The notes under the pieces are model-generated. The model made no database searches. It worked only from the letters and a program-made list of their open reading frames with translations, and was not told the origin of the DNA. From UHGV virus genome UHGV-0140649: a DNA stretch of 11,552 nt; one strand, given 5' to 3'. Position numbers and translations under genes: made by a program. Shown piece by piece: positions 744-1,526 of the stretch (its first letter is position 1; each line of letters begins with the position of its first letter). The DNA comes from a virus.

Positions 744-937
744 GAATCCTCCCGGTCGGGATAATGTTGTGAGTCAGATGAGGGAACGGGCTGAAGTCCG
801 GAAGTTACAGGACAATGGCAGGAGGAAGACTACAGCCCGCAATACGAAAAAGGCCGCGCTATTGCGCAGAGTGATTACTGTCGGATATTATTCGCCAGCT
901 GAAATATTACTTCACGTTTTGTTGTTTATTCCTTGCC

Positions 938-966
938 GCCCGCGTCTCCCAGCGCGGGCTTTTTTT
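938..966 (+). terminator. Intrinsic terminator on the plus strand: 7-bp GC stem (gcccgcg/cgcgggc), 8-nt loop, then a run of 7 T
   Basis: Inverted repeat 938-944/953-959 followed by ttttttt at 960-966. Confidence 0.5.
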
Positions 967-970
967 GTCC

Positions 971-997
971 ATAAGAAAGCCCCTCCGGAGAGGGGCT
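971..997 (-). terminator. Intrinsic terminator on the minus strand: 8-bp stem (agcccctc/gaggggct), loop cgga, U-rich tail; forms a back-to-back pair with the 938-966 terminator
   Basis: Perfect inverted repeat 978-985/990-997; the minus-strand transcript continues UUCUUAU. Confidence 0.4.
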
Positions 998-1431
998 GGA
1001 GAGTGGCGCTATGTGCCATTGCATGGTGCCGGGTGCCTCCCGGTGAGTTCAGTATCAGCACCTGAACCCGCACAGAAAGGATAAGGGTCGGTGACAAAAC
1101 ACCAGTTGCTGATTGCCCCTCCGCACAGGGGGATTCACCATGCCAGTTTCTTTTAACAAACTCCCCGCAAACCAGACAACAGTCAACCGCCTGAATTGTG
1201 AGGTATTTAAAAATTTCAACGGGTAACTGATACCCTGCTAATCGCCTGATGATGGATTGTAATCAACAACAGAAAGCACCATTTCTGGCGTTAATTTTAT
1301 TTCTTTCATCGCTTTACCTTAGGGATAGAGCCTGTTCGCGTAGATATGACAGCCAAGAGCGGAGCGATGTTTCCACCACCATATCTCAGGCCCATATCAC
1401 TAAGACTCTTGTTTTGATTGCACGCGAATGC

Positions 1432-1454
1432 AAAAAAGCCCACAGGAGGTGGGC
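1432..1454 (-). terminator. tR'-like intrinsic terminator for the short late-promoter transcript
   Basis: Stem gcccac/gtgggc (1438-1443/1449-1454), loop aggag, followed on the minus strand by six U (1432-1437). Lies about 40-60 nt downstream of the putative late promoter. Confidence 0.6.
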
Positions 1455-1496
1455 TTGTGATGGTTGCTGAATGCAAAAGCAGCAGCATATGTGAAT

Positions 1497-1526
1497 ATTA
1501 TGGCTAAATGGCTAATTGCATGTCAA
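1497..1526 (-). promoter_or_regulatory. Putative late promoter PR' (Q-utilisation region) overlapping the 3' end of Q
   Basis: Minus strand reads TTGACA (1526-1521), 18-nt spacer, CATAAT (1502-1497). Near-consensus sigma-70 promoter placed as PR' is in lambdoid phages, immediately upstream of the 1432-1454 terminator. Confidence 0.5.

Follow-up and report, generated by a model that had tools for sequence, protein, structure and literature searches.

In the virus genome UHGV-0140649, what occupies the DNA that separates the antiterminator gene Q from the esterase gene? We analysed an 11,552-nt stretch of this genome (the window, to which all coordinates refer); its late genes are minus-strand genes, and we read the region in their direction unless stated otherwise. 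An initial annotation, made from the sequence alone, had described a compact late promoter and terminator followed by an unoccupied or vestigial cargo site. Positions 744–1526 are, with high probability, the leader of the late operon in a mosaic lambdoid prophage that combines two phage types, and the leader has four parts: a phage-21-type antitermination cassette, a recombination scar, a small RNA (sRNA) gene of the STnc100/PasD family, and a convergent sRNA of the EcOnc42 family. The Q-to-esterase interval is not empty, and it is not new either: every component is a member of a known family. The particular mosaic, an HK629-type Q module joined to an sRNA and esterase module of the type found in Shiga toxin (Stx) phages, appears from its alignments to be a new combination. 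Of the earlier description of about 690 bp of non-coding DNA, the length (687 bp from the end of the late terminator tR′ to the esterase ATG) and the lack of a transfer RNA (tRNA) or convincing open reading frame (ORF) stand, but two sRNA genes and a gene remnant lie inside.

The first of these sRNA genes was found with Rfam covariance models, a scan that the initial annotation had proposed as a check. No tRNA was returned, but STnc100 (RF02076) was matched with a score of 143.2 bits (gathering score 47; E = 2e-33), over model positions 1–206 of 206 and without truncation. A structured RNA gene identified by homology had been named in advance as the finding that would overturn the earlier view, and the statement that 744–1432 contains none is contradicted both by this match and by the convergent EcOnc42-family homologue described below. 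RNAalifold, applied to 14 variants, recovered a closing long-range helix, two inner hairpins and the terminator, and the cmscan alignment agrees with this consensus structure. The fold of the whole RNA is unremarkable (z = −1.9). The genomic context is that of the family: the esterase gene lies no more than 900 nt downstream in 87 of 110 loci with an STnc100 core, and in 8 of the 110 stxB lies ~110 nt upstream of the core. Strain EDL933 has 11 STnc100-family copies, most of them transcribed and one confirmed by Northern blot (PMC5331693). In Stx2 phages, a copy situated 75 nt past stx2B overlaps EcOnc27/sRNA103 (PMC12370729; PMC12711010), and PasD, which is related to STnc100, is located in enteropathogenic Escherichia coli (EPEC) between Q and the sialate (sialic-acid) esterase gene (bioRxiv 10.64898/2026.05.13.724894). 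The window copy resembles STnc100, PasD1, PasD2 and EcOnc27 (sRNA103) in its full-length covariance match, in its closing helix and type of terminator, and in occupying the place that follows the cargo and precedes the sialate esterase gene; its 5′ sequence GCAUGGUGAAUCC is that of PasD2. Unlike PasD, it does not have the seed UGUGAG.

We propose that this sRNA gene has its own promoter and is oriented as the late operon is. The candidate promoter elements (Table 1) are the best-conserved upstream columns across 87 distinct loci. The PasD2 locus has TTGACT-17-TTAAAA with an RNA-seq 5′ end 8 nt downstream, and this 5′ end (GCAUGGUGAAUCC; PMC8550237 Table S6) aligns to G1143 of the window. Together with the conserved promoter columns, this alignment favours a ~175-nt transcript running from 1143 to 967 over the 206-nt Rfam span, and TTGTCT-18-TGtTAAAAG at 1179–1150 would be the promoter that drives it. 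STnc100-family genes look to be built on a constant scaffold (window 967–1143; loci L006–L125) that comprises the 5′ GCAUGGUGAAUCCCCCUGUGCGGAGGGGC, a pair of inner hairpins, the closing helix and the terminator, and this scaffold holds two hypervariable segments, V1 (window ~1113–1071) and V2 (~1019–998). Among 111 loci we counted 6 V1 and ~10 V2 alleles, which are discrete and occur in mixed combinations; unlike other STnc100 copies, the window copy has its own pair, V1 allele 1 with V2 allele 0. A four-gamete test for recombination between V1 and V2 gave no complete set in this sample of loci, which is biased. One V2 allele resembles the 3′ part of PasD.

The second sRNA gene lies on the plus strand and would be tail to tail with the first. 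Window positions 1071 to 700 are 95.2% identical to prophage PP6 of EPEC E2348/69 (93% over 601–1071), and a candidate RNA detected there by the ligation and sequencing of interacting RNAs (RIL-seq), E2348C_1409.E2348C_1408.IGR (NC_011601 minus strand, 1444797–1444978), maps onto 785–966 (+). In VT1-Sakai, the DNA between stx1B and the esterase gene is 92–94% identical to the window (94% over 770–970). Homologues of the EPEC candidate in enterohaemorrhagic E. coli (EHEC) are EcOnc08, EcOnc21 and EcOnc42. EcOnc42 was detected by cross-linking and analysis of cDNA with Hfq (Hfq-CRAC) and by Northern blot, and ‘bookends’ stx1AB on the 3′ side (PMC7873438; PMC7547250). Besides this DNA identity of 92–95%, the window gene agrees with EcOnc42/21/08 and the EPEC candidate in its strand relative to the esterase gene, in its 3′ end and in the seed CCUUGCC beside the terminator; it differs from EcOnc42 of EHEC Sakai in having no stx upstream. 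In the predicted fold, CCTTGCC (931–937) is single-stranded and directly 5′ of the terminator, an 8-bp stem with a U7 tail. YCTTGCC is kept in 13 of 13 aligned homologues, and the 3′ 100 nt are near-invariant across 29 distinct homologues. These features suggest an sRNA of the Hfq-dependent kind, wholly antisense to the 5′ leader of the esterase gene. The −35 of its candidate promoter overlaps the esterase start codon. GATAAT at 760–765 is unchanged in most of the 29 variants, but this counts for little, as these bases also specify the ribosome-binding site and start of the esterase gene.

The plus-strand hairpin at 938–966 could instead be a merely protective terminator, directed against antisense transcription from the esterase side, and not the end of an sRNA that functions in trans here. 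A weak candidate promoter (9/12 consensus matches) overlapping the esterase translation start would fit this explanation, as would the unexceptional fold of the whole plus-strand RNA (z = −0.7) and the fact that EcOnc42 has no known function. Against it stands what is retained in homologues of only ~70% identity, namely YCUUGCC, a hairpin whose stem differs in sequence, and a U7–9 tail. The EPEC homologue, moreover, has 10 Hfq-dependent RIL-seq partners, including the cfa and dppA leaders, tir and emrA, in which it is always on the sRNA side, and the motif common to these partners, GGCAAGG, is complementary to the seed. We therefore consider a purely protective role improbable and retain the assignment to the EcOnc42 family. 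This family is not in Rfam. An RNAalifold consensus for the plus-strand sRNA was implausible, with the U-tail paired to upstream bases, and was rejected in favour of single-sequence folds of the 3′ module. GGCAAGG sites elsewhere in the window were uninformative (3 against 1.6 expected). As separate observations, a weak match to OmrA-B lies at 865–966 (+) (E = 0.55; 19.9 bits, gathering score 40); the segment CGCAGAGUGAUUACUG is similar to the 5′ end that OmrA/B conserve, and GCGCAGRGTGATTAC is kept in 13 of 13 homologues. The plus-strand sRNA could have a processed 5′ end here, or a second seed. In PP6 (L004, 1–1300), a transposase gene of ISEc13 is found just upstream, and decay is evident in the STnc100 copy, which scores 75 bits and aligns with internal gaps; the EcOnc42-like convergent sRNA beside it is intact and is the one detected by RIL-seq.

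The two RNA genes also account for the pair of back-to-back terminators reported at 938–997. Both hairpins are present and face one another: the plus-strand stem at 938–959 runs into T7, and the minus-strand stem at 997–978 is followed by TTCTTAT. Neither has a U-run on the opposite strand, and each would therefore terminate transcription in one direction only. In the terminator scan, 6 terminator-like sites were called against 1.6 ± 1.3 in shuffled sequences. The two sRNAs end within a few bases of each other, and we read the hairpins as the 3′ ends of the STnc100 and EcOnc42-like genes; what does not hold is their standing as a free-standing element.

What remains of the vestigial cargo site is a scar between tR′ and the sRNA module. 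From Q down to 1242, the window is 99.4–99.5% identical to HK629 and to the IMG/VR contig L103, in both of which the spacer after tR′ leads into an intact gene for a 170-aa endonuclease (Pfam HNH_3, 2e-18; AP2, 1.6e-8). In the window only codons 1–23 of this gene are kept (1309 to 1241), with a stop at 1240–1238. From 1251 on, the sequence matches the 3′ end of a DUF3927 allele (...AAAGCATCAGGCGATTAG) which precedes the sRNA module in L003, L124 and others. The left-parent homology (HK629, L103) stops at 1242 and the right-parent homology (L003, L028 and others) begins at 1251, and the two overlap in a 10-bp microhomology. The junction bears the signature of a deletion or illegitimate recombination that removed cargo. 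Relatives carry at the same place an HNH gene, tRNAs, a methyltransferase gene, TerB with DUF3927, or stxAB. In L103 the HNH gene is followed by tRNA-Asn, tRNA-Gly, TerB, DUF3927 and a PasD-like sRNA, and in VT1-Sakai the order is Q-PR′-tR′-stx1A-stx1B, then 510 bp that are 92% identical to window 650–1050, then the esterase gene. The expectation that Stx phages carry cargo in the equivalent interval was thus confirmed by alignment for stx1AB, and other relatives have tRNAs there. As at the Stx-phage cargo (moron) site, the window has a PR′-tR′ leader on one side and the STnc100 and EcOnc42 module with the esterase gene on the other; unlike that site, it has no cargo, only a 72-nt chimeric remnant of two cargo genes. 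Among the loci that have a Q21-type Q no farther than 2.5 kb from an STnc100 core (26 in all), the spacing from Q to the sRNA is shortest in the window. Upstream homology breakpoints cluster at 1251, 1241, 1218, 1213, 1210 and 1201, which places the right edge of the cargo site ~60–110 nt upstream of the favoured sRNA start at G1143.

Taken literally, the initial annotation would have the interval after PR′-tR′ be empty cargo DNA free of any RNA gene, with the terminator pair as an isolated insulator. It was right that cargo is missing relative to related loci, that there is no tRNA and that no ORF has a Pfam match. As a whole, however, we give this description very little credence: it is already contradicted, since STnc100 is matched along its full length with a score threefold the gathering one, the plus-strand terminator lies in a sequence that is 93–95% identical to an RNA recovered with Hfq in EPEC and 92–94% identical to the VT1-Sakai region with the reported EcOnc42, and the module from 1213 to 745 is common to ~2,900 E. 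coli genomes. The site is better described as a cargo site that has lost its cargo and kept its flanking RNA genes.

Protein-coding content offers no better account of the interval. ARAGORN and Rfam found no tRNA anywhere in the window, seven interval ORFs gave no Pfam match, and PHROG matches were partial, in keeping with the earlier statement that neither a tRNA nor a convincing ORF is present. That small proteins are nevertheless encoded here, by plus-strand ORFs at 742–1065 and 1113–1226 or by a 60-aa minus-strand ORF at 1488–1306, is hardly tenable in spite of matches to phrog_31368 (1e-17) and phrog_27294 (5e-14) and of a RefSeq pseudogene called here in NCTC9112, since the matches reach no more than 30 of 40 positions of one profile and 25 of 59 of the other, the plus-strand ORFs are absent or have shifted limits in ~40% of 92 distinct homologous segments and lie antisense to the late operon and atop an Rfam RNA, and the 60-aa ORF runs through tR′. 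We regard the plus-strand ORFs, and likewise the NCTC9112 pseudogene over STnc100, as gene-caller artefacts over conserved sRNA DNA; phrog_31368 and phrog_27294, families of unassigned function whose matching ORFs overlap the two sRNA genes, are probably collections of spurious ORF calls. Rfam matches to OmrA-B, anti-hemB, SgrS, suhB, P9 and snoZ13 were rejected; all were far below their gathering scores and mostly recognised terminators. AsxR, AgvB and Esr41 were not found in the Rfam scan even at E < 5.

Upstream of the scar is the antitermination cassette. The Q protein matches Q21 in PDB entries 6JNX and 6P18 (E = 3e-92 and 1e-91, residues 1–162) and belongs to Pfam PF06530 (8.6e-26). The near-consensus promoter that had been placed over the end of Q is borne out: PR′ (TTGACA-18-CATAAT) has 11 of 12 consensus matches and is the top-scoring site in 600–2100, where the promoter scan called 4 promoter-like sites against 1.6 ± 1.5 in shuffled sequences. 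Its −35 lies within the final Q codons, and the Q stop codon, TAG at 1506–1504, falls inside the spacer. The stretch from 1560 to 1497 is 100% identical to phage Sf6, whose annotation describes the counterpart of 1526–1497 as ‘nearly identical to phage 21 late promoter’ and then lists a qut site, followed by tR′ and by tRNAs ‘similar to phage 21’. Homology to the window ends exactly at the final base of the PR′ −10 in many Q21-type phages, among them Sf6, HK75 and BTP1, which is what a conserved Q/PR′ module would lead one to expect. Two alternative, unrelated leader/terminator cassettes follow this same promoter, one of the 21/Sf6 type (also in L124) and one of the HK629 type. The window shares with phage 21, Sf6 and HK629 a Q21-family Q, an identical −35, the tandem repeats, the −10 and a terminator within ~60 nt of the start; past the −10, its leader is that of HK629 instead of that of 21/Sf6. 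Identity to HK629 is 99% over leader and terminator, the record of that phage marks a rho-independent terminator at the hairpin, and a point of difference is the following HNH gene, which is cut after codon 23 in the window.

Between the −35 and −10 lie two perfect tandem copies of TTAGCCAT, the second of which contains the Q stop codon. Q21 binding involves two protomers and a site of two 8-bp subsites in tandem direct repeat (bioRxiv 10.1101/651190; PMC9388147), and the repeats at 1515–1500 are putative Q21 subsites. TATGCT at 1489–1484 is a plausible sigma-dependent pause element: both leader cassettes retain TAWGCT 7 nt past the −10, and Sf6 and L124 have TAAGCT at this equal distance though the leaders otherwise differ. 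As predicted, tR′ comprises an 8-bp GC-rich stem (AAGCCCAC/GTGGGCTT) with a 5-nt loop, followed by six T's to 1432, which supports the earlier claim of an intrinsic terminator close behind the promoter. With A1490 as transcription start, the RNA would be ~59 nt long (fold −21.5 kcal/mol, z = −3.0), with the hairpin at +35 to +55. The 10-mer TTTTGCATTC occurs on both sides of the tR′ hairpin (1469–1478 and 1426–1435, minus strand), the second copy containing the terminator U-tract; the pair may be the trace of a duplication or due to chance.

The mechanism of Q21 antitermination is established, and nothing in the mechanism is new here; the sites assigned to it are our own placements. PR′ would be constitutive, with RNA polymerase pausing at the −10-like element just past the start. 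When Q is absent the polymerase would stop at tR′, so that a lysogen would make only the ~59-nt leader RNA. Two Q21-type protomers bound to the tandem TTAGCCAT subsites would load onto the paused polymerase and make it resistant to termination, and it would then pass both tR′ and the sRNA terminator and continue into the genes for the esterase and lysis. The comparison of the leader to lambda 6S RNA or StxS made in the initial annotation survives as one of architecture: in each case a constitutive late promoter and an intrinsic terminator yield, or would yield here, a short RNA in lysogens, and StxS shares the GC-rich hairpin and U6 tail. Homology is another matter, as blastn gave no similarity between window 600–1560 and the PR′-tR′ (StxS) region of VT1-Sakai. 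Lambda 6S RNA is 194 nt long. StxS is a 258-nt RNA processed to 74 nt (PMC7547250). With its ~59 nt, the predicted leader would be an architectural analogue only.

Several points weigh against this four-part reading. Every transcription start proposed here was deduced. For the STnc100-like sRNA, the Rfam model begins 30 nt upstream of the favoured start, the proposed −10 (TAAAAG) does not have the usual final T, and the promoter scan gave no call; the 5′ end of the plus-strand sRNA, mapped from EPEC, is known only within ~15 nt. Covariation is thin in both sRNAs, whose paired regions scarcely vary, and STnc100 has only 3 compensatory pairs. The assignment of the Q-binding element follows from the form of the repeats and a chain of annotations. 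The scar may have arisen either by deletion within one phage or by recombination between two. Finally, in the GenBank record of HK629 (L126, JQ182735) a ‘putative late promoter pR′’ is placed at 1985–1990, downstream of the terminator and equivalent to window 1344–1339. If this were the real late promoter, 1526–1497 would be an unrelated promoter-like site and the hairpin a terminator of the Q transcript, an arrangement we all but discount because the hexamer at 1344–1339 is TCTACG, which is not promoter-like and was not called in the promoter scan, because Q antitermination requires promoter, binding site and pause site all upstream of the terminator, and because 1526–1497 is identical to the phage-21-type PR′ annotated in Sf6 and homology in many phages breaks exactly at its −10. 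We take this annotation to be an error: the HK629 pR′ is probably a misannotation, and a phage-21-type PR′ lies upstream at the end of Q.

Table 1. Features of the Q-to-esterase region, in window coordinates
Feature	Position	Strand	Details
Esterase ribosome-binding site and start	741–753	−	GGGAGGA 753–747; ATG 743–741; gene runs off the window start
Candidate promoter of plus-strand sRNA	737–765	+	ATGCCA-17-GATAAT, 9/12 consensus; would start RNA near 772
Convergent EcOnc42/21/08-family sRNA gene	772–966	+	5′ end ~772–785; seed CCUUGCC 931–937; stem 938–959; U7 960–966
STnc100 (RF02076)/PasD-family sRNA gene	967–1172	−	Rfam span 1172–967; likely transcript ~1143–967, ~175 nt; terminator 997–978
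Candidate promoter of STnc100/PasD-like sRNA	1150–1179	−	TTGTCT 1179–1174; 18-nt spacer; TGtTAAAAG 1158–1150
Chimeric 23-codon ORF	1238–1309	−	MKEIKLTPEMVLSVVDYNPSSGD*; 5′ remnant of HNH_3 + AP2 endonuclease gene fused to final DUF3927 codons
10-bp microhomology at junction	1242–1251	−	CATCAGGCGA; overlap of the two homologies
Spacer common to HK629 and L103	1310–1431	−	Includes HNH-gene ribosome-binding site; 99.4–99.5% identity
Predicted leader RNA from PR′ to tR′	1432–1490	−	~59 nt; hairpin 1456–1436; U-run 1437–1432
−10-like TATGCT at +2 to +7	1484–1489	−	Candidate sigma-dependent pause element, read from sequence
Late promoter PR′	1497–1526	−	−35 TTGACA 1526–1521; 18-nt spacer; −10 CATAAT 1502–1497
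Tandem 8-bp direct repeat between −35 and −10	1500–1515	−	TTAGCCAT x2; candidate Q21 binding element
Q antiterminator gene, phage-21 type	1504–2022	−	ORF 2022 to 1504, 172 aa

The exact arrangement is rare, occurring in 1 of 5,426 complete E. coli genomes (NCTC9112, 99.9%); it is also present in five records of PhiR12 phages, which are reported on E. coli K-12 and C hosts. Our finding is mainly a correction of annotation. In the phage and RefSeq records that we checked (NCTC9112, JE86-ST05, E2348/69, PhiR12_1 and VT1-Sakai), no sRNA is annotated in the interval, and the intergenic block gathers spurious hypothetical ORFs and pseudogenes instead. The phage offers a natural ‘cargo-less’ version of the Stx-phage late leader, in which the flanking regulatory RNAs are kept without the toxin, and it is a safe and convenient background in which to ask what STnc100 and EcOnc42 do for a phage.

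Since both sRNAs and the leader RNA are kept where the cargo has been deleted, they may serve the phage itself and not the toxin or other cargo. We offer this only as a speculation, more likely wrong than right, together with the suggestions that the EcOnc42-like RNA could act in cis and that STnc100 is a scaffold with exchangeable segments. If so, pairing between the RNAs or collision of converging transcription could silence readthrough of a leaky STnc100 terminator in lysogens and, once the prophage is induced, adjust the expression of the esterase and lysis genes. In the STnc100 family, a fixed scaffold would carry two exchangeable target-recognition segments, shuffled between prophages by recombination.

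The esterase product contains DUF1737 (3e-16) and matches SASA below threshold (19.2 bits where the cut-off is 24.8; E = 0.001), and its RefSeq name is ‘SASA family carbohydrate esterase’. Upstream of Q, window 2066–4612 (−) contains a NinG-like gene, a KilAC/Roi-type antirepressor gene (2671–3399) and a 355-aa ORF (3545–4612); the two of these nearest to Q are in the same gene order as in NCTC9112 and PhiR12.

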